From Patescibacteria group bacterium (GTDB lineage: Bacteria; Patescibacteriota; Kazan-3B-28; UBA10110): DNA of 64,000 nucleotides. How positions within the stretch are numbered: position 1 is the stretch's first letter; each line of letters begins with the position of its first letter. The stretch covers positions 5,726-69,725 of the forward strand of contig JAFGPN010000004.1 of NCBI GenBank assembly GCA_016936175.1, in the 5' to 3' direction. The notes under the pieces were generated by a model that worked only from the letters and a program-made list of their open reading frames with translations, searched no databases and was not told the origin of the DNA. A program made the translations under genes and the position numbers. Below are positions 6,005 to 40,884 of the stretch, piece by piece.

Positions 6005-6430
6005 TTATTCGGTAGATACTGGGATGGTGCCACATTTTGTGGCGGCTTGGGCGGCTTTTACGGCATCATCCAAATTGGGCTCGACCGTCCAAACTTGGCG
6101 GCCGTCCTTAAGCCAGAGATCAACATTACGATCGTGCGTCTGCGAAATTCTTAAAACTTCGCAGTTTTTTATCATCGATAGCGCCTGATTCCATTCAATC
6201 ATTTCACTGCCAGTCGAATCACTCCCCTGCCCTGGCAGATTTTGATTATCCGAAGAAATGCAGGCCGTGGTCGGCATAGGTGCACTCGGGTTTCCGTGTT
6301 TTATCCACTGATTATTCTGACAGAGCCAGGTGTCTTCGTCACCGCTACCCAATCTCAGCCCCACCACCGTAGCGCCTGATATCGCCAAAATTAGCACCAA
6401 AACCCACAAGAATTTATCCAATCTGTCCAT
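6005..6430 (-). CDS. hypothetical exported/anchored protein
   Basis: 141 aa with an N-terminal signal-anchor helix. No family recognised. Confidence 0.5.
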   Translation of the reverse strand: MDRLDKFLWVLVLILAISGATVVGLRLGSGDEDTWLCQNNQWIKHGNPSAPMPTTACISSDNQNLPGQGSDSTGSEMIEWNQALSMIKNCEVLRISQTHDRNVDLWLKDGRQVWTVEPNLDDAVKAAQAATKCGTIPVSTE

Positions 6431-7925: not shown

Positions 7926-8195
7926 ATGTACTTTGTGTATATCATACGGAGTGCGACAACGAGGCGGCACTATGTGGGGCTGACTGCTGATGTTTGCAAA
8001 AGATTGGCTGCTCACAATTCTGGAACCACCAGACCAACTATCAGCGGACGCCCATGGTCGCTAATACATCAGGAAGAATTCAATACTAGGACAGAAGCCC
8101 GAGAACGAGAAAAGTATCTAAAAAGTTATGGTGGCGCCGGTGAGAAACAGGCTATAATCAGGGCGTCCGCTGACAATTATTCCCGGGTCGTCTAA
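7926..8195 (+). CDS. GIY-YIG nuclease family protein (small, stand-alone)
   Basis: MYFVYIIRS...HYVGLT...RLAAHNSG...EAREREKYLK is a GIY-YIG-type fold pattern. I moved the start to ATG 7926, because the track start at 7794 overlaps rarA. The 3' end overlaps the first 15 nt of tRNA-Gln. Confidence 0.7.
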   Translation: MYFVYIIRSATTRRHYVGLTADVCKRLAAHNSGTTRPTISGRPWSLIHQEEFNTRTEAREREKYLKSYGGAGEKQAIIRASADNYSRVV

Positions 8196-8254
8196 GGGCA
8201 GGACACTTGGTTTTGGTCCAAGGAATCGGGGTTCAAATCCCTGCCCGGGAGCCA
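8181..8254 (+). tRNA. tRNA-Gln (anticodon UUG), CCA encoded
   Basis: Manual cloverleaf. The acceptor stem tcccggg/cccggga has 7 perfect bp. D arm is gtc-taagggcag-gac, the anticodon arm is cttgg-ttTTGgt-ccaag, and the T arm is cgggg-ttcaaat-ccctg. Discriminator g is followed by cca. Total length 74 nt. Confidence 0.9.
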
Positions 8255-33415: not shown

Positions 33416-34195
33416 CTACTTCTTGCCCGTCGGATACTCGTGGGCTTCGACCACCTGTTCAACCGAGTAGCGATATTTGCAAAAATCACAGTCCGGATCG
33501 GGGTCTGGGATATCATCTCCCACCAGACACTCCTTCATTCCCAGAATGGTTGCATCTATCCAATCTGTCTTGCCGACATAGGGAATTAATTTAATATCAA
33601 ACTCTAACTTGGCATCAAAAGCTTCTGCGTCGCGTTTACCATTGCAGTAAACAAAGTAAGCGGTATCAGAAACTTTAAATCCGTTCTGACGAAACAGCCA
33701 TTGATAGATCTCTACTTGCCTTTTATAGCCATCCTGCCAAGCGGCATCCAAGCTTACCTCGGCATCTTTGCTGGTGGCTTTGTAATCTACAATTATCAAT
33801 TCTCCCGCTGGGTTAACCCAAACATCGTCGATTCCGCCATAGATTAACAGATTGGTTGCCGGATGCAAATACCGAACTCCTACATAAGCATTGCGCCAAG
33901 TCTCCAAATCTTCGTGTTGGTACGGCACTGCATCCAAACCGTAAGCCTTCATTAAAGGGTGAGAAGTGCCATCTGCCCGATGTACATCGAATTCTTTTTT
34001 TAACAACAAGTCCACCGCCGAGTTGAGACTAAACGGATAACCCGGTGGCTGACCCACGCCCAGACGCCGATCAATATAAAAACACCGAGGACATTTAATA
34101 AAGTTATCGATCTTGCTCCGGCTTAATTTGTAGGGTTCGGAAGAAGTAGGATCAAACAGATCGCGTCCCCGCTTCCCTCGATAATATTCAGACAT
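33416..34195 (-). CDS. PD-(D/E)XK nuclease family protein (Cas4/RecB-like, Cys-rich)
   Basis: 259 aa. It has IVDYKATSK (the D..E/DxK core), an N-terminal CPRC and a C-terminal CDFC pair suggesting an Fe-S or Zn site. Confidence 0.6.
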   Translation of the reverse strand: MSEYYRGKRGRDLFDPTSSEPYKLSRSKIDNFIKCPRCFYIDRRLGVGQPPGYPFSLNSAVDLLLKKEFDVHRADGTSHPLMKAYGLDAVPYQHEDLETWRNAYVGVRYLHPATNLLIYGGIDDVWVNPAGELIIVDYKATSKDAEVSLDAAWQDGYKRQVEIYQWLFRQNGFKVSDTAYFVYCNGKRDAEAFDAKLEFDIKLIPYVGKTDWIDATILGMKECLVGDDIPDPDPDCDFCKYRYSVEQVVEAHEYPTGKK

Positions 34196-34218
34196 AACAA
34201 CAATTTAATGCTTATCAA

Positions 34219-34902
34219 TCATACCATATCAGATACCCGAGCTTTTTCCAGATCGGTTATCGACTTAATCTCATCTAATTTAATTGCCTGGATAACCGAA
34301 AATTCTCCAATCCGAACTCGGCACAAGTTAGATAAGTAAGCCCCGACACCCAGCTCTTTCCCAATATCATGGGCTAGCGATCTAATATATGTCCCGGGCG
34401 AAACCCTGGTCGTAAACTCAACCCGGGGATACCGATAATCGATTAGCTCAATGTCATAAACTTCAACCGGGCTGGGCTTTAGCTCCACCGCTTCGCCCTG
34501 CCGCGCTAATTTGTGAGCGCTTTGCCCACCGATTTTTTTAGCCGAAAAAATCGGCGGCAACTGCTCGGTTTGACCGATAAATGTTTTTAAAACATTTTTT
34601 ATCTCGCTATCGCTCGGTTCTCGATCGGAGACAGCTGTTAGTTCTCCCTCACTATCATAGGTACTGCTATCCTTGCCTAAGGTAATTTCGGCCCGATAAA
34701 CTTTATCTAAGCTCTTAAATTTATCAACCTGTTTAGTAAACTCCCTGGTTACAGCCAAAACCAACAAGCCCGAAGCCAGGGGATCTAATGTGCCAGCATG
34801 ACCAATCGTTCGTTCACCAGTTACTCGACGCAAAACATCTACCACATCATGCGAGGTGGGTCCGACCGGCTTATCAATCAGAAAGAAACCGCTTATAGAC
34901 AC
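34219..34902 (-). CDS. truB: tRNA pseudouridine(55) synthase
   Basis: 227 aa with GHAGTLDPLASGLL, the catalytic Asp motif. Confidence 0.9.
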   Translation of the reverse strand: MSISGFFLIDKPVGPTSHDVVDVLRRVTGERTIGHAGTLDPLASGLLVLAVTREFTKQVDKFKSLDKVYRAEITLGKDSSTYDSEGELTAVSDREPSDSEIKNVLKTFIGQTEQLPPIFSAKKIGGQSAHKLARQGEAVELKPSPVEVYDIELIDYRYPRVEFTTRVSPGTYIRSLAHDIGKELGVGAYLSNLCRVRIGEFSVIQAIKLDEIKSITDLEKARVSDMV

Positions 34903-35378
34903 TTGGTTTGCGTATCTGTAGCTTCGGTTAATTCTCCAAACTGTCCGCTCATCTCGTTGTAGCGATTATCGGTTACTGCCGCGGCAACCGTATCGGTCTG
35001 CACCGTTATCTGAATAGTGTGAGCAGTTTTTACCCCGTCTAGAGCCTCATTAACCCGATTACCATAGCCGCCATTGCGAGAATCGAAAGTAAACTCGTAC
35101 AGCATCGCACCCACACACTTGTTAGCGCTGACCGACTGCATAAACTGAAGATTTTCGCCGTCAAATTTATAGGTCGGCGCGTTATCGGTTATCCATCTCT
35201 CCGCTATCCCCCGTCCGCCGATCTGCTGGTTTACCGTATCACTCGAGTCAGTTGAGGTGGCATCGGGCACTACCGAACCATCGCCCGGCTGAGTAACTAG
35301 CCTCAGGCCACAACCACCAGCTCCAACCAATAAGATTAGCGAAGCGATAATAATAATTGATTGACTAGCTTTGCTCAT
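34893..35378 (-). CDS. hypothetical lipoprotein
   Basis: 161 aa with a signal peptide and a lipobox-like GAGGCG. Confidence 0.5.
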   Translation of the reverse strand: MSKASQSIIIIASLILLVGAGGCGLRLVTQPGDGSVVPDATSTDSSDTVNQQIGGRGIAERWITDNAPTYKFDGENLQFMQSVSANKCVGAMLYEFTFDSRNGGYGNRVNEALDGVKTAHTIQITVQTDTVAAAVTDNRYNEMSGQFGELTEATDTQTKCL

Positions 35379-35412
35379 TTCTCAATTTAGTATTTAATTA
35401 CTAAAAATTGAT

Positions 35413-36576
35413 TTAATATTTCCCCGTTTTAATTATTTTGTAACGATCTTGCCAGAAACCACCAATGCCAATCATCATCAATATGAGACAGACCAGCCAG
35501 CCAATAAGCGGAACTATCCCTACCAGCCCAAACAAGATTGCGCCGACTATTAATGCGCCCAACTGTCTGCCGATAGTTTTATCGAACTTTCTAACTAGCC
35601 AACTCCCAATTAATATGGCGGCCGCAAAATAACCAAACATCAGCAATAAGCCATAAACCAGGCCGACGGCAATAGTCAGATGAATTCCGATCAGTGTTAT
35701 GGTTAATACCAACATTAGTACCGGTATGCCCAGAGCTACTACTAACCCTTGCCAGAAAGCCTTCCAATAATCTTTTTTAATTGCCACGGTAATCCGCGGC
35801 AATAGTTTGGGCATCAACCAAATGATTACCGCTCCCATCAGCAAAATCGAGACCAACTTCCACAGCAAAAACCCAGCACCAAGGGCTGGTATCATCCATA
35901 ACATCACTCCCAACATCGGCGGCAACGGAGTGTGTGTAGTTTTTTGGGGATGATAAGTAACCGTCTTAGCATATTTGGCAAACTCCGGATTTTCTTTAGG
36001 CGCCCAATAACTTAGCTCGCCGCCAATCTTGGTCCCGGGCAGGATAGAGATATAGTTGTCGGTTTTTATCTCAACGTCGCCATCGATACTAGCGTTAAGG
36101 GTTACCGCTCCTCCAGCTATCCGGGCATTACCATAAATCTTGCCGCCGACCATTGCCGTAGCGGCGCCAATAATTAAATCACCCCTAATCACCGCTTTTT
36201 CACTGGTCGTTAAGGTGCGGGCCCCAACTATTACATCATCATCTACTGTGGTATTAATAACTACCTCACCAGCTCCGATTCGAACGTCACCAGCTACCCG
36301 ATTGTTAACCCATACCGTGTTGGCTCCCACCCACAGATCACCCTCCACTTGGCCATTTATCTGAGCAGTGTTGGCCCCGATTAACAAATCACCATCGATA
36401 GCGGCATCAACCATGGCCGTATTGGCGCCAATATAGGTATCATCAGTCAGCGCCGCCCTAATCGTAATCGGTTGACCCGTATCACTAGCCATAAAATTGG
36501 GCGCCGCCCAGGCTGGGTTCGCCAAACCCACGGTAGTAAGCGCCACGAACATCAATATAAAAATTTTCTTTATCAT
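35413..36576 (-). CDS. bactofilin-like beta-helix repeat protein with C-terminal TM domain
   Basis: It carries repeats of the type DGDLLIGANTAQINGQVEGDLWVGANTVWV and about 5 C-terminal TM helices. The start was moved to ATG 36576 (signal peptide MIKKIFILMFVALTTVGLANPAWA). Confidence 0.55.
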   Translation of the reverse strand: MIKKIFILMFVALTTVGLANPAWAAPNFMASDTGQPITIRAALTDDTYIGANTAMVDAAIDGDLLIGANTAQINGQVEGDLWVGANTVWVNNRVAGDVRIGAGEVVINTTVDDDVIVGARTLTTSEKAVIRGDLIIGAATAMVGGKIYGNARIAGGAVTLNASIDGDVEIKTDNYISILPGTKIGGELSYWAPKENPEFAKYAKTVTYHPQKTTHTPLPPMLGVMLWMIPALGAGFLLWKLVSILLMGAVIIWLMPKLLPRITVAIKKDYWKAFWQGLVVALGIPVLMLVLTITLIGIHLTIAVGLVYGLLLMFGYFAAAILIGSWLVRKFDKTIGRQLGALIVGAILFGLVGIVPLIGWLVCLILMMIGIGGFWQDRYKIIKTGKY

Positions 36577-36651
36577 CACCCTAAATTTATTTTTTATATC
36601 TTTAACTATTATACGCCCCTGGCCGCGTCCGCGGTAGCGGGCAGGCAAAAT

Positions 36652-36695
36652 AAAAAAACCCGCCGATGAGGGCTATGACCTCAGAGGTCGGCGGG
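36652..36695 (-). terminator. strong intrinsic terminator
   Basis: The stem cccgccga / tcggcggg has a structured loop and is followed by a U7 run on the minus strand. Confidence 0.8.
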
Positions 36696-37273
36696 CAGGG
36701 GGGAGAAAGGCATCAACAAGAAGTAACGCGGCCGGGGTGTTGTGAGGGCCCCGGCCTTGGGAGGAACTGTCGTGAAGAAGGTTTGGGTGGGCGCTAACTC
36801 CAGCACACGTTGGCGACACATCTCAAAAACCCTCTTACACGTCGGGTAAGCAAATGGGTAGATGGGAACCAGCTAACTTGTCCCGTTTAACAGGGAGGCA
36901 CGCGCTGTGGCTCAGCTGGTTCCCATCCGGGGCGGAAAATAATCTGGAGTGTTCTGATGTGGTAAGTGGAAACCAACCGGCTAAGAGCACAACAAAGGGT
37001 GGGGTGGAGATGACCAGTTGTAGACTGCCCAAACAGATTAACCGTTCTTAATCGGCACCTGGTGGCCAATGGCGGCTGGCAGTAAGCCACCAAGGAATGG
37101 ACCGCTACACCAACACGCTCGGAGTCACCTGCAACAGGAAACTCCTCGATTCATCGCGGCCTCACATCGAAATCGCATGCTCTCAACTAAATCTTCACCC
37201 TCAGAGAGCCGGATGCAAAAGGGTTAAGCTGGTTTTGGGGTTGTCAATGTGCGCACAACCCGTAACGATCTTA
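36696..37273. ncRNA. ORF-free, hairpin-dense region: candidate large structured RNA (identity and strand unresolved)
   Basis: No ORF longer than 76 aa occurs in any frame over about 580 nt. Many perfect local helices are present, including a 14-bp stem gatgggaaccagct/agctggttcccatc at 36861-36926. The region is bounded by a minus-strand terminator. Confidence 0.4.
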
Positions 37274-38128
37274 TTATACCCTAGCCAAAGCGGGTTCTTC
37301 TGGCTTGATAACCTCCTCGTATTTTAAGGCTCTGATCAGCCGAGTAACTCCGATTCCTGTCCCAAATCGCGGCCTCATCGCCAGAGATAGATAGTTTTCT
37401 AATTCTCGCTCAACCCTCTCCCGACCAAATAACCCAAACAGCTTACCAGCATATTCGCCATCGCTAATGTGATAAAAGTTATACCGCATCTCATTAGCGT
37501 TACAACTGCGCTCTGCCCCACCGAAAGTTTCCATCCCATGAAGAATAACATCCACCTTGGAAAACAGGTCATTCCCTTGATGTTTCATGTTCCAAAACGG
37601 ATGAGTAGAAAAGGGGAAATTTTTTAAAAATACTACCGGCGCAAAATCTTTTGACATCAGCAATTCCTGCTCTGCCTCTATCTCTTCTACCCCATAGTGA
37701 TCAGCTATATCAGAATAGTTCATCTCCAGCATCGGGCTTTTAAAGCCCAGATAAGCCAAAAGTTCTCGCTCTAATCGCATTAGATCTTGCATATCGCCAA
37801 AGCTCTCAAATTCGAACATCGGAAAAATCTTATCGTGCCGACCTTCGATTGGATGCTGTTCGTCTCGATAGCTAGTAGAGATACAAAAAACGCCCGGAAC
37901 TTCCGGGTGTTTCAACAACTCATATTCTAGCCACATCTGACCAGTTTGTGGCAACGGCCAACGTGTGCCTCCAAACTCAAATTGAGAAATAGTGGTAGGG
38001 TCCTCACAGGCGGCCAAAATAGATAATCGCGCTTGAACTGGCACCTCCACAAATCCTCGACCGACAAAAAATTCTCTTAACTTATTTACTGTCCAATTGT
38101 ACTCATAAATATCAATTAGCTTAATCAT
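37274..38128 (-). CDS. class II aminoacyl-tRNA-synthetase-like catalytic core (AsnA/AsnRS-paralog type), no anticodon-binding domain
   Basis: Motif 2-like YRDEQHPIEGRHDKIFPMFEFE and motif 3-like RFGTGIGVTRLIRAL. The start was moved to ATG 38128, which is preceded by RBS aaaggag. Confidence 0.6.
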   Translation of the reverse strand: MIKLIDIYEYNWTVNKLREFFVGRGFVEVPVQARLSILAACEDPTTISQFEFGGTRWPLPQTGQMWLEYELLKHPEVPGVFCISTSYRDEQHPIEGRHDKIFPMFEFESFGDMQDLMRLERELLAYLGFKSPMLEMNYSDIADHYGVEEIEAEQELLMSKDFAPVVFLKNFPFSTHPFWNMKHQGNDLFSKVDVILHGMETFGGAERSCNANEMRYNFYHISDGEYAGKLFGLFGRERVERELENYLSLAMRPRFGTGIGVTRLIRALKYEEVIKPEEPALARV

Positions 38129-38338
38129 AGAATCTCCTTTCCCATAATTATTCTGGGTGAGTAAAACTTTTATTTGATTGTCCGCATTGATACTGTTTAT
38201 CAATGGGCAAAAAAATAGACTCTTGCGAGTCCATTGGGGCTACTTATCAAAGAGCAGCCAGTTAGCTAATAAATTCTTAGCTAATTTTACCAGTTGATGA
38301 TTTTACGTCAACATACAAACTATACACTCTGGGAGCTT

Positions 38339-38803
38339 CTATTTATTTAGTAACCAAAAAATATAGGCCAAATAAGTAGCAAATGCTACCCAGGCCGCAT
38401 ACAGCCACAATAAGATCGACGACCAGCGCGCTTTTCGCCACATCATTACGATTAGCCAAATCACCGTCGCCTCTAAAAACAACATCTCAATAATTGCGCT
38501 ACCCGTCCACTGCTTAAAGAAAAATAGATAACTCCAACCAACGTTTAATAATCCGTTGATAATAAACAGCCAGTTCACCATCCAGAAATTTTTGGGACGC
38601 TGTTTTTGGTTAAACCACAGCAAGAACGAAATAGTGGCAAACAGATAAATAATCGTCCACATCAGCCCGATAAAGGCACCGGTTGGAGCTATGCCTGGTA
38701 GGTTTGAACTAAAATACCACGGCAGACCAATGTTGGTTAAGTAACTACCAGCCCAAGCCACCCCAATCGCCCCTAGCGGAATCAAAATATAGTTTATTCT
38801 CAT
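38339..38803 (-). CDS. tspO: TspO/MBR family tryptophan-rich membrane protein
   Basis: 154 aa with 5 TM helices and a Trp-rich pattern (NVGWSYLFF, WVAFATYL). Confidence 0.7.
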   Translation of the reverse strand: MRINYILIPLGAIGVAWAGSYLTNIGLPWYFSSNLPGIAPTGAFIGLMWTIIYLFATISFLLWFNQKQRPKNFWMVNWLFIINGLLNVGWSYLFFFKQWTGSAIIEMLFLEATVIWLIVMMWRKARWSSILLWLYAAWVAFATYLAYIFWLLNK

Positions 38804-38812
38804 ATATTTATT

Positions 38813-39280
38813 CTACCCTAACCAATTCGATAGTTGGTATATAGCCACTCCAAACGCCACCGAAACATTTAGCGATTTACGTTGGCCTCTCATCGGAATC
38901 TCGATTATCACATCAGAAATAATTCGGAGTGGCTGGCTCACTCCCCTGACTTCGTTGCCAATAATCAACGCGATTTTAGATTTAGTTGGCTTAAACTTGC
39001 GATAATCCACCGCTCGCCCATCCTGCTCTAACGCTACAATCAAATACCCGCTCTTCTTCAAATCGCGAATTAAATCACCCACTCGCTTAATTTTTACCCA
39101 CTGCAACCTTTTTTCTGAGCCTAACGCCACCTTGGCGATCTCTGGGCGAGGCGGAAACGGTGTATATCCGGTCAGATATAGTTTAGCTACCCCAGCTCCC
39201 TCGGCCGTCCGAAAGATCGAGCCGACATTATGCATACTCCGAATATTGTGCGCAATCACCACCAGTTCTTTTATCTTCAT
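38813..39280 (-). CDS. SpoU/TrmH-family RNA 2'-O-methyltransferase
   Basis: 155 aa with NVGSIFRTAEGAGV, LIIGNEVRGVS and SLNVSVAFGVAIY motifs. Confidence 0.85.
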   Translation of the reverse strand: MKIKELVVIAHNIRSMHNVGSIFRTAEGAGVAKLYLTGYTPFPPRPEIAKVALGSEKRLQWVKIKRVGDLIRDLKKSGYLIVALEQDGRAVDYRKFKPTKSKIALIIGNEVRGVSQPLRIISDVIIEIPMRGQRKSLNVSVAFGVAIYQLSNWLG

Positions 39281-39292
39281 ATTCGTATATTA

Positions 39293-39485
39293 CCCCATTG
39301 AACAAATTGCGTAAGCCAATAGCAAAACTGCCGCTACGGCGCGGCTGCTATTTGAGTCCCGGTATACCGGGACGAGTTCAACTAATAGAAGCCAAGTAAG
39401 GCACCGTTTTGCCTTTTGGGTAGTAATTTGTGATTGGGGCCGCCTTTAGACGCCACCCGTTTGGCGGAGCAAATGGGTGGCAAAA
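39293..39485 (+). repeat. structured intergenic element, full copy B
   Basis: Same architecture as copy A. The internal hairpin is gtcccgg-tata-ccgggac and the 3' hairpin is gccacccgtttg-gcggag-caaatgggtggc. Confidence 0.8.
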
Positions 39486-39531
39486 CAAATTTTAGTAACT
39501 TTGGTAAAAGTAAACAAGATATAATGGGTGC

Positions 39532-40884
39532 ATGGCTAATACAATTCAATTTTTGGGCGCCGCGGGAGTCGTTACCGGCTCTAGTTATTTAGTATCAACC
39601 GATTCGGCTAAGTTCTTGATCGATTGCGGATTGTTTCAAGGCGCGGCGGCGGCGGACAGAAAGAATTATCAATCGTTCCCTTATAATCCAACCAAGATTA
39701 ATTTTCTTATTTTAACTCACGCTCACTTAGATCACTGTGGCTTAATCCCTAAACTGTATCGGGATGGATTTCGGGGACGTATCTACACTACCCCGGCAAC
39801 CTTCGATCTAGCTCAAGCCATTTTAACCAACGCCGCCCAAATCCAAGAACACGGCGTCACCGACAAACAACTGGAAGCTTTGTTTATAAAACGCGACGCC
39901 ACTAATTCGTTTAAGCTTTTCGAAACTCACGAATATGGTAAAACCTTCTCCCCGATGCCGGGCATTAAAGTGCGACTTAATGATGCCGGGCATATCTTGG
40001 GAGCCGCCATCGTCGAGGTATGGATCCAAGGTCAAAAACTGGTCTTCTCCGGAGATCTGGGCAACAGCCCGGTACCCATCATGAAAGACCCCACCATTAT
40101 TCGAGACGCTAACTATGTTATCTGTGAATCGACCTACGGCGATAGGTTGCACGAGCCACCTTCTGCTCGCGAAAAGAATCTATTGGCGACAATCAAGCAA
40201 GCCGCCAGAGATGGCGCCAAACTGATCATCCCCTCTTTTGCTTTAGAGCGCAGCCAAGATCTGCTCTACACTTTAAATAATTTTCGTAACAGCGGGGTAC
40301 TTCCCAATATCCCCGTGATATTAGACAGCCCCTTGGCCTCTCAAATCACCGATATCTTTAAGCGATACACCAAATTATTTGATGCGGATTTTCAAAGATA
40401 CTTAAAGACCGATAAAGATCTGTTCGATTTCCCCGGCTTTCGCCAGACCAGAACTAAATTTCAATCCAAGGCCCTAAACCAGTTATCGGGCGCCGCTGTG
40501 ATCATCGCTGGTTCTGGCATGGCCGATGCGGGCCGAGTTCAACACCATCTGCTTCACCATTTGGACGAACCCAGAACCCAAGTGCTATTCGTTGGCTTCC
40601 AAACTCCCAACACTTTAGGTCGCCGATTAATTAACGGGGCACGTCAGGTTAGAATAATGCGCCATCGGATTACGGTAAAAGCTCAGATCAAAGAGTTGGG
40701 CGCCTTCTCGGCTCATGCCGATCAGGCCGGACTACTGCGTTGGTTATCGGGCTTTACCTCTAAGCCCACTGTATTTTTGACTCACGGCGAAAATATCTCT
40801 CGCGAAGCGTTAGCTAAAAAAGTTTTGAGCAAACTTAAACTTAAGGCAGTTATCCCAGCTATGGGAGAGATAAAAACAATATAA
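39532..40884 (+). CDS. MBL-fold beta-CASP ribonuclease (RNase J/CPSF-like)
   Basis: 450 aa with the HAHLDHCG motif and beta-CASP and C-terminal motifs (SAHAD). TATAAT lies 7 nt upstream of the ATG. Confidence 0.8.
   Translation: MANTIQFLGAAGVVTGSSYLVSTDSAKFLIDCGLFQGAAAADRKNYQSFPYNPTKINFLILTHAHLDHCGLIPKLYRDGFRGRIYTTPATFDLAQAILTNAAQIQEHGVTDKQLEALFIKRDATNSFKLFETHEYGKTFSPMPGIKVRLNDAGHILGAAIVEVWIQGQKLVFSGDLGNSPVPIMKDPTIIRDANYVICESTYGDRLHEPPSAREKNLLATIKQAARDGAKLIIPSFALERSQDLLYTLNNFRNSGVLPNIPVILDSPLASQITDIFKRYTKLFDADFQRYLKTDKDLFDFPGFRQTRTKFQSKALNQLSGAAVIIAGSGMADAGRVQHHLLHHLDEPRTQVLFVGFQTPNTLGRRLINGARQVRIMRHRITVKAQIKELGAFSAHADQAGLLRWLSGFTSKPTVFLTHGENISREALAKKVLSKLKLKAVIPAMGEIKTI

Follow-up and report, generated by a model that had tools for sequence, protein, structure and literature searches.

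Noncoding RNAs longer than about 400 nucleotides (nt) are rare in bacteria, and those with known functions are ribozymes or the cores of ribonucleoprotein machines. ROOL and GOLLD, whose functions are unassigned, are ornate bacterial RNAs of about 580 to 800 nt that were defined by covariation and are typically associated with phages and located near tRNA genes. OLE RNA, of about 600 nt, is the product of a single-copy chromosomal gene in Firmicutes, and combines an ornate, multi-helix structure with many conserved unpaired nucleotides. The OLE homodimer includes a symmetric kissing loop with a covarying palindrome, and ROOL and GOLLD are RNA-only homo-oligomers that are partly held together by kissing loops (PMC12286853). 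All three of these orphan RNAs were recently shown to form quaternary assemblies of RNA alone. In Patescibacteria, structured RNAs of several hundred nt are frequently found as group I introns (PMC13011429). In this report, we describe a candidate RNA gene that lies on the minus strand of a 64,000-nt stretch of the genome of a Patescibacteria group bacterium (contig JAFGPN010000004.1, positions 5,726 to 69,725; hereafter, the window, in whose coordinates all positions are given). We estimate a probability of about 0.72 that this is an independent minus-strand gene for a structured noncoding RNA of about 615 nt (580 to 750 nt in relatives) whose family is absent from Rfam 15. The region is conserved among related loci, covariation is evident in five helices, the strand can be assigned, coding potential is lacking, and no Rfam model matches. 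On these sequence features, the RNA is most likely a stand-alone, trans-acting and highly structured noncoding RNA of a family not yet described. In kind, it most likely belongs with the large ornate RNAs that are still orphans, but it is a member of none of their families.

We searched the region with cmscan and all 4,227 Rfam 15 families. At gathering thresholds, no family matched the region; with E ≤ 10 and permissive filters, positions 36500 to 37450 produced only noise on both strands; and in nine homologous loci (see below), no family matched the RNA at E ≤ 1. A preliminary description of this locus had hesitated between a divergent known RNA and a novel large RNA, and had named a confident match to a standard family as the result that would make this an ordinary gene. 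No such match was found at any of these levels. RNase P RNA (types A and B), tmRNA, 6S RNA, OLE, ROOL, GOLLD and raiA, which it had listed for this search, are excluded at the sensitivity of the models, as are introns of groups I and II. The lack of an Rfam match, together with the covariation described below, favors the novel-RNA branch, and the known-RNA branch was not borne out. Literature searches returned no description of an RNA like this one. Elsewhere in the window, the sole match at gathering thresholds is a tRNA (8181-8251, plus strand, 54.3 bits). The most distant homologous locus, L023, also carries an S-adenosylmethionine riboswitch (RF00162, 59.3 bits, positions 6072-6189 of that locus), which precedes an S-adenosylmethionine synthetase gene.

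The closest resemblance is to OLE (RF01071), with which the RNA shares its approximate size, its single-copy chromosomal gene, its ornate multi-helix architecture and its many conserved unpaired nucleotides. A palindrome in the loop of its first hairpin also follows the OLE kissing-loop pattern, as judged from sequence alone. However, the window and the nine homologous loci show no sequence or structure match to OLE, and the hosts are Patescibacteria rather than Firmicutes. No oapA-type gene for a membrane-protein partner is present among the eight neighboring proteins (Pfam scan); the conserved neighbor instead encodes a secreted, bactofilin-like DUF8173 protein and has its own promoter. ROOL (RF03087) and GOLLD (RF01688) are comparable in size and ornateness, in their unassigned function and in being defined by covariation, but neither model matches the window or the nine loci. 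In addition, the window RNA occupies one conserved chromosomal locus, with no prophage setting, no adjacent tRNA gene, and no match to phage or plasmid sequences. An origin in such elements was considered and rejected: blastn against phage and plasmid collections found nothing, 22 viral matches to a sequence pattern (see below) were due to chance and none was supported by the nhmmer profile of the family, and nhmmer finds a single copy of the RNA in the window.

The preliminary description had presented this region as dense in helices and free of open reading frames (ORFs) above 76 amino acids (aa), and the ORF listing agrees. The longest ORF touching 36696-37273 has 76 aa (37097-37327, plus strand), and the remainder have at most 68. 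The ORF-poor gap is bounded by the stop of one minus-strand gene at 37274 and the start of the next at 36576. Most of the proposed helices were recovered, including ggccgggg/ccccggcc (36730-36756), the hairpin ggagt..cctg-ttg-cagg..actcc (GGAGU..ACUCC, 37121-37145) and the cccgccga/tcggcggg terminator hairpin followed by U7 (36652-36695). A perfect 14-bp stem is real (GATGGGAACCAGCT at 36861-36874 with AGCTGGTTCCCATC at 36914-36927), although its end had been placed one base short. A helix likewise exists at 37058-37095, where cctggtggcc/ggccaccagg had been reported, but it is imperfect, having 9 bp interrupted by one bulge; the quoted strings are both strands of a single arm.

The G+C content is 0.53-0.57 inside the region versus about 0.44 in its flanks, and pyrimidines predominate in the sense strand of the RNA (C > G, U > A). 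With flanks and terminator, minimum-free-energy (MFE) z scores are -2.0 for the plus strand and -5.4 for the minus strand (20 shuffles); without the terminator, they are -2.0 (sense) and -1.4 (antisense). From the window alone, support for structure beyond chance is modest, and an ORF gap with helices in one sequence would not prove a structured RNA. We favor a structured RNA because the comparison with homologues, and not the folding of the window, gives decisive support.

Homologues were located by synteny and a pattern scan and were confirmed with nhmmer. The set comprises ten sequences: the window, eight other full-length loci (L001/L016, L011/L012, L018, L019/L020, L021, L022, L023 and L024, all from metagenomic sequences or metagenome-assembled genomes) and the partial locus L003; nine are therefore full-length. 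Upstream of the RNA, the window encodes a protein resembling an aminoacyl-tRNA synthetase (aaRS). Relatives of this protein led to L001 (81% identity), where the homologous gap is present, and to L003 (75%), where the first 130 nt of the RNA region are present. At about 70% identity (L002, L004, L005-L007), tRNA or RRM-protein genes occur in place of the RNA. A search with the DUF8173 protein encoded downstream gave L018, L019/L020, L021, L022, L024 and the distant L023, whose protein is only 42% identical; each has an ORF-poor gap of 580 to 750 nt upstream of the DUF8173 gene. The pattern scan used the two best-conserved blocks (AGCCACAGCGC-N15-35-AGTTAGCTGG) on 185,579 species genomes and JGI metagenomes. 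It added L011/L012 and L016, all from the same clade, and otherwise returned chance matches (Mycobacterium; L013-L017 except L016), in a search that would miss relatives lacking the motif.

A profile built from the nine regions and run with nhmmer aligns to each of them over its whole length, with E values from 3e-34 to 3e-109. Thus, the conservation that the preliminary description had suggested seeking by nhmmer or BLASTN is present, as a homologous full-length RNA in eight other loci. The family has been seen so far only in a narrow Patescibacteria clade. In all nine full-length loci, the DUF8173 gene lies downstream in the same orientation, whereas, upstream, five of nine homologues carry a methyltransferase gene, a SpoU methylase gene or a small ORF. 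Because the upstream gene varies, we regard the aaRS-like neighbor as incidental. A large RNA downstream of an aaRS-like gene, as first described, is thus an accurate account of the window, but the conserved neighbor is the DUF8173 gene. A tie to the aaRS-like gene was rejected, given the tRNA or RRM genes that accompany its homologues of about 70% identity.

Folding the homologues segment by segment revealed a common architecture (Table 1). For hairpin D, we aligned eight sequences with MAFFT, derived the structure with RNAalifold, and compared the pairing with 500 column shuffles and with arms slid by 1 to 3 columns. The hairpin has 17 pairs, of which nine change on both sides, and 93.8% of its cells are paired versus 36-55% when slid; none of the 500 shuffles reaches its score. 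Inside it are a conserved AGCCACAGCGC at 36902-36912, an internal hairpin at 36882-36895 and AGUUAGCUGG at 36869-36878. The long-range helix PK joins GGGUGGAGAU to AUCUCCACCC about 190 nt downstream. In an alignment of the 5' region fused with that of the PK 3' strand, P1 plus PK is 82% paired versus 40-52% when slid by 1 to 3 columns, no shuffle of 500 reaches the score, and eight pairs have double changes. Compensatory changes in PK fall at alignment pairs 94-147 (AU in five sequences, GC in three, GU in one), 95-146, 92-149 and 86-155, and its versions include GAGAU/AUCUC, GAGGU/ACCUC, GAGAC/GUCUC and, in L023, GGUGAGGUGGGG/CCCCACCUCACC. In P1 itself, 83.6% of cells are paired and the closing pair covaries from G-C to A-U (alignment A6); the stem is degenerate in L001 and L023. 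Helix E exhibits double changes in 15 of 21 pairs among five homologues (MAFFT plus RNAalifold), and a differently arranged helix takes its place in L001 and L011. Hairpin F, with nine pairs in eight sequences, has changes on both sides in six. Like the large ornate RNAs, then, this one exceeds 400 nt without coding (580 to 750 nt, no ORF above 76 aa in the window and no conserved frame) and has several covarying helices (D, P1 plus PK, F and E).

Table 1. Positions of the proposed RNA gene, its structural elements and its transcription signals in the window.
Feature	Coordinates	Strand	Remarks
-10 box TATAAT of the RNA gene	37273-37278	minus	Shares bases with the TAA stop of the aaRS-like gene upstream
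Predicted transcript, ~615 nt	36652-37266	minus	Start placed ~7 nt past TATAAT; 3' end at the U-run of the terminator
Hairpin P1, GGGUUGU / ACAACCC	37238-37261	minus	7 bp, 10-nt loop; alignment A6
Palindrome UGUGCGCACA	37248-37257	minus	End of the P1 5' arm and loop; candidate symmetric kissing-loop site
UUGACA motif	37242-37247	minus	Invariant in the nine full-length sequences and the partial one; kept in L023, which lacks the P1 stem
Probable helix X, outer arms	UUGCAU 37213-37218 / AUGCGA 37173-37178	minus	
Probable helix X, entire, including inner arms GCUCUC (37204-37209) / GAGAGC (37179-37184)	37173-37218	minus	Helix in the same place, varied sequence
PK 5' strand GGGUGAAGAU	37191-37200	minus	Partner 37002-37011
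Variable multi-hairpin domain within PK	37012-37172	minus	Contains hairpins 37121-37145 and 37058-37095; per-sequence folding
PK 3' strand AUCUCCACCC	37002-37011	minus	One A·C mismatch in the window
Hairpin region M3, pyrimidine-rich loop UUUCCACUUACC	36949-36990	minus	Between PK and D; by eye, unscored
Hairpin D, perfect 14-bp stem in the window (14-17 bp across the family)	36861-36927	minus	Covariation
Helix E, GUGUAAGAGGGUUU (36827-36840) / AAACCUUCUUCAC (36772-36784)	36772-36840	minus	Internal hairpin
Hairpin F, GGCCGGGG / CCCCGGCC	36730-36756	minus	
Intrinsic terminator CCCGCCGA...UCGGCGGG and U7	36652-36695	minus	Seen in the window
Separate -10 box TATAAT of the DUF8173 gene	36608-36613	minus	3' of the RNA terminator

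These changes bear directly on the possibility that the region is a non-functional spacer or a decayed pseudogene. Identity is low over large parts of the alignment (mean column identity 43%), as such a spacer would predict. Against this, compensatory changes maintain the helices among homologues, which contradicts the decayed remnant that the preliminary description had also envisaged; no protein-like conservation is seen; G+C content is elevated; and 580 to 750 nt have been retained in small, compact genomes. We give this explanation next to no credence.

Other elements of the architecture are less uniform. A helix X with different sequences occurs at the same place in the window, L024, L018, L019, L021 and L022, with arm pairs GCUCUC/GAGAGC, GCUCUC/GAGAGU, CUCGCGC/GCGCGAG, CGGCUCUUGC/GUAAGAGCUG, CAGCUCUUAC/GUAAGAGCUG and UUUGCCCU/AGGGCAAA. 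It exceeds shuffled flanks in L024, L018, L021 and L022 (p ≤ 0.04), so that this test backs it in only 4 to 5 of the ten sequences. MAFFT plus RNAalifold did not recover it, the arms being shifted by indels. Helix X is probably real and, with the PK 5' strand inside its loop, X and PK probably form a pseudoknot. The spacing of the two PK strands ranges from 90 to 240 nt among homologues, and every sequence has hairpins between them, whose sequences are not conserved. By eye and unscored, M3 forms a hairpin at an equivalent position in all homologues, each with its own stem sequence, and its loop carries the motif CCUCC..UUACUGACUUAGG in L001, L019 and L021. Four motifs are invariant and unpaired: UUGACA, CCACAGCGC, AGUURGCUGG and UUUGCU.

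A tertiary pairing between hairpin D and helix E was considered as well. The D-loop sequence CAGCGC(GU) (36900-36907) is complementary to GUGUGCUG in E (36801-36808; RNA positions 366-373 and 465-472), and the pairing of CAGCGC with GUGCUG is conserved in three sequences (the window, L018 and L011), but it has no covariation and was rejected. Inside helix E there is also AGUUAGCG, which nearly duplicates the AGUUAGCUGG of hairpin D. CUCC/CCUCC tracts occur in linkers and loops (36698-36710, 36759-36767 and 37002-37011, minus strand). A role as an anti-Shine-Dalgarno sponge was rejected: the enrichment of these tracts is mild (z 2.2-3.2 versus dinucleotide shuffles), and the best of them is engaged in PK pairing. 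In L011, the PK 3' strand reads AUCACCUCC, which resembles the 3' end of 16S rRNA.

The long-range pairing also invites comparison with RNase P RNA (RF00010/RF00011), which is similarly large and structured and in which long-range pairing closes a pseudoknot, as it probably does here. Standard models might have missed a housekeeping RNA (RNase P, tmRNA, 6S or signal recognition particle RNA) that has diverged strongly in this lineage. In favor of this idea, genes for RNA-processing proteins (a beta-CASP RNase, a SpoU methylase and TruB) are nearby, and the preliminary description had noted strings that recall conserved regions of RNase P RNA. Those strings are literally present, but on the plus strand, which is not the transcribed one, and neither strand gives a score with the RNase P models, so we rejected a plus-strand RNase P RNA. 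Of the universally conserved motifs that build the RNase P P4 pseudoknot, neither CR-I (GAGGAAAGUCC) nor CR-V (ACAGAA..CCGGCUUA) is in the sequence, and the order of helices differs; the conserved long-range helix is GGGUGGAGAU/AUCUCCACCC rather than P4. None of the four housekeeping classes scores at E ≤ 10 on either strand, or in the nine homologues. For tmRNA, ARAGORN found neither tRNA nor tmRNA in positions 36000-38000, Rfam gave no match, and neither a tRNA-like domain nor a tag ORF is present; tmRNA was rejected. We consider a missed housekeeping RNA very improbable.

A ribozyme or intron-derived RNA (group-I-like or otherwise self-processing), in which the unpaired motifs would form an active site, would account for the large size, the probable pseudoknotted core and the several invariant unpaired motifs, and group I introns are common in Patescibacteria (PMC13011429). 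However, neither Intron_gpI (RF00028) nor group II models match the window at E ≤ 10, and none match the homologues. No tRNA, rRNA or protein exon halves flank the RNA, since it runs from promoter to terminator. It also has a fixed position, vertical inheritance and no extra copies. A tRNA gene split by a group I intron, a lead from the same work (PMC13011429), was rejected in the absence of tRNA halves and of an Intron_gpI match. We therefore view an intron or ribozyme origin as distinctly improbable.

The strand of the RNA is evident from the kinds of base pairs that its helices accumulate. In the minus sense, hairpin D contains 26 G·U versus 2 A·C cells, counts that the plus strand would reverse, so we assign the RNA to the minus strand. 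Helix E is also G·U-rich in this sense, and MFE z scores are more negative for the sense strand in seven of nine homologues (means of about -4.4 versus -3.0). Coding potential was assessed in the same sequences. The homologues share no reading frame, because their stop-to-stop frames differ. When six-frame peptides of the window were compared by tblastn with the other RNAs, the only matches spanned at most 29 aa and fell in various frames of both strands, at blocks conserved as nucleotides. The region is not a protein gene, either intact or decayed.

A TATAAT lies 21 to 25 nt before UUGACA in all ten homologues, whatever the upstream gene, and in the window, L001, L011, L003 and L024 it runs into the stop codon of that gene. 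Transcription would begin shortly after this box (about 37266) and end at the terminator (36652). All nine full-length copies end in a G+C-rich hairpin of differing sequence followed by a U-run, and the terminator is part of the RNA gene itself, whose unit thus extends from 36652 to about 37266. A reading of TTGACA as a -35 box was rejected, because no homologue has a -10 box 16 to 18 nt beyond it.

The overlap of the promoter with the aaRS-like stop codon makes co-transcription possible in four loci, and the RNA might then be a long structured 3' untranslated region of the upstream gene; alternatively, the transcript might come from the plus strand, given that in some homologues the antisense strand, too, is more stably folded than its shuffled versions. 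Yet the TATAAT and the RNA are kept when the upstream gene changes, and closer homologues of the aaRS-like gene lack the RNA. The plus strand is contradicted by the G·U versus A·C counts, the terminators and the promoter. We see only a very slim chance that either version is correct.

On the downstream side, the RNA could act in cis as a very long 5' leader of the DUF8173 gene, with its terminator as a conditional gate for read-through. The gene follows the RNA directly and co-oriented in nine loci, even in L023, with its 42% identical protein, and the terminator lies just before it. However, between the terminator and the DUF8173 start codon, a second TATAAT and an A/U-rich leader occur in eight of nine full-length loci (all but L023). 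This promoter and leader (36577-36613, minus strand) consist of TATAAT, 5 to 8 nt, GATATAAAAAAUAAA, 3 to 6 nt, GGGG and the start codon. That this separate conserved promoter follows the terminator of the RNA argues against the RNA being simply a DUF8173 leader, and a riboswitch or attenuator would be separated by it from the gene in the same eight loci. In addition, the spacer from terminator to promoter varies from 5 to about 180 nt, and no conserved anti-terminator alternative is seen. Shared descent can explain the synteny of the downstream block (DUF8173, a 159-aa ORF, truB and the PD-(D/E)XK gene). To our knowledge, riboswitch and attenuator leaders do not reach lengths of 600 to 750 nt. 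A leader function is therefore unlikely. The A/U-rich block of the DUF8173 leader is itself conserved well past the needs of a spacer.

We thus return to a stand-alone RNA. Its conserved multi-domain structure comprises P1, the probable X/PK pseudoknot, the variable central domain, M3, D, E, F and the terminator. By analogy with OLE, ROOL and GOLLD, it might act in trans as a folded scaffold, and UUGACA, CCACAGCGC, AGUURGCUGG and UUUGCU may serve as contacts for tertiary structure, proteins or ligands. A clue to self-association is found directly before UUGACA, where a perfect palindrome of 6 to 10 nt occurs in eight of ten sequences. The criterion was a perfect palindrome of 6 nt or more in the 12-nt segment whose last base is the first U of UUGACA; among other 12-nt segments of these RNAs, 8.5% contain such a palindrome. 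Five different palindromes are found: UGUGCGCACA in the window, UGCGCGCA in L024, CGUACG in L011 and L003, ACGUACGU in L019, L021 and L022, and GAGCUC in L023. The central positions change from G...C in the window to A...U in L019, L021 and L022, and to G...U in L011. These are adjacent positions, too near each other for pairing in a single chain. Kretsch et al. applied the same argument to symmetric intermolecular kissing loops in OLE (L9.3) and GOLLD (L21a) (PMC12286853), and the P1 loop has the features by which such loops were recognized there, namely a covarying, self-complementary palindrome. Two copies of the RNA could therefore pair through the P1 loop as a symmetric kissing loop. We treat self-association as a tentative lead, and the combination of a trans-acting scaffold with self-pairing as a speculative proposal that may well be wrong.

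Patescibacteria, members of the candidate phyla radiation (CPR), have very small, gene-dense genomes. A noncoding RNA of 0.6 to 0.75 kb that is constrained by structure, has promoter and terminator sequences of its own and is kept in small genomes therefore presumably repays its cost through some function. As a new family, with a covariation-backed architecture and a dimerization signature, it offers a fresh target for RNA structural biology, and studies of CPR biology gain a lineage-specific RNA to place in metatranscriptomes, within the limit of a narrow known distribution (nine full-length sequences). A more ambitious suggestion, which we regard as rather doubtful, is that this is the first large noncoding RNA class specific to Patescibacteria, a pseudoknotted and self-assembling RNA that is indispensable as a scaffold or catalyst. 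If so, a self-assembling, CPR-specific RNA would provide a scaffold or catalytic function that minimal genomes cannot drop.

Several observations weigh against these proposals. The -35 element of the RNA gene is weak or variable, and the predicted transcription start site and transcript ends derive from sequence inference alone. The folding-energy excess of the window is small once the terminator is removed (z -2.0). Because the nine full-length sequences are related members of one clade, the shuffle controls for hairpin D and for P1 plus PK overstate significance. The MAFFT alignment is poor in variable parts, and the central domain has no consensus model. Helix X, and with it the pseudoknot, does not reach significance in the window (p = 0.18), and L001, L011 and L023 lack it. 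L018 has no self-complementarity before UUGACA, and that of L001 depends on G·U pairs; alternatively, the palindrome could function in the DNA, as an operator immediately downstream of the promoter. The constant adjacency to the DUF8173 gene fits a cis role.

The gene order at the locus places the aaRS-like gene, TspO and SpoU upstream of the RNA and DUF8173 and TruB downstream. The neighborhood (33416-40884) includes a beta-CASP/RMMBL ribonuclease, a SpoU methylase, TruB, a PD-(D/E)XK nuclease and a TspO/MBR membrane protein, and the neighboring genes give no functional clue to the RNA. The downstream gene (35413-36576, minus strand) encodes the secreted DUF8173/bactofilin-like protein. The upstream gene (37274-38128, minus strand) encodes a 284-aa class II aaRS core (PF00152) without an anticodon-binding domain. 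In L002, tRNA genes follow the aaRS-like gene (1431-2088), and small genes with RRM_1 domains flank it in L002, L004, L005 and L006. Several NCBI records name the aaRS-like protein "transposase," which looks like a misannotation. Its homologues of 60-68% identity include proteins labeled Nanoarchaeota or Woesearchaeota, and the gene is possibly shared between CPR bacteria and DPANN archaea.

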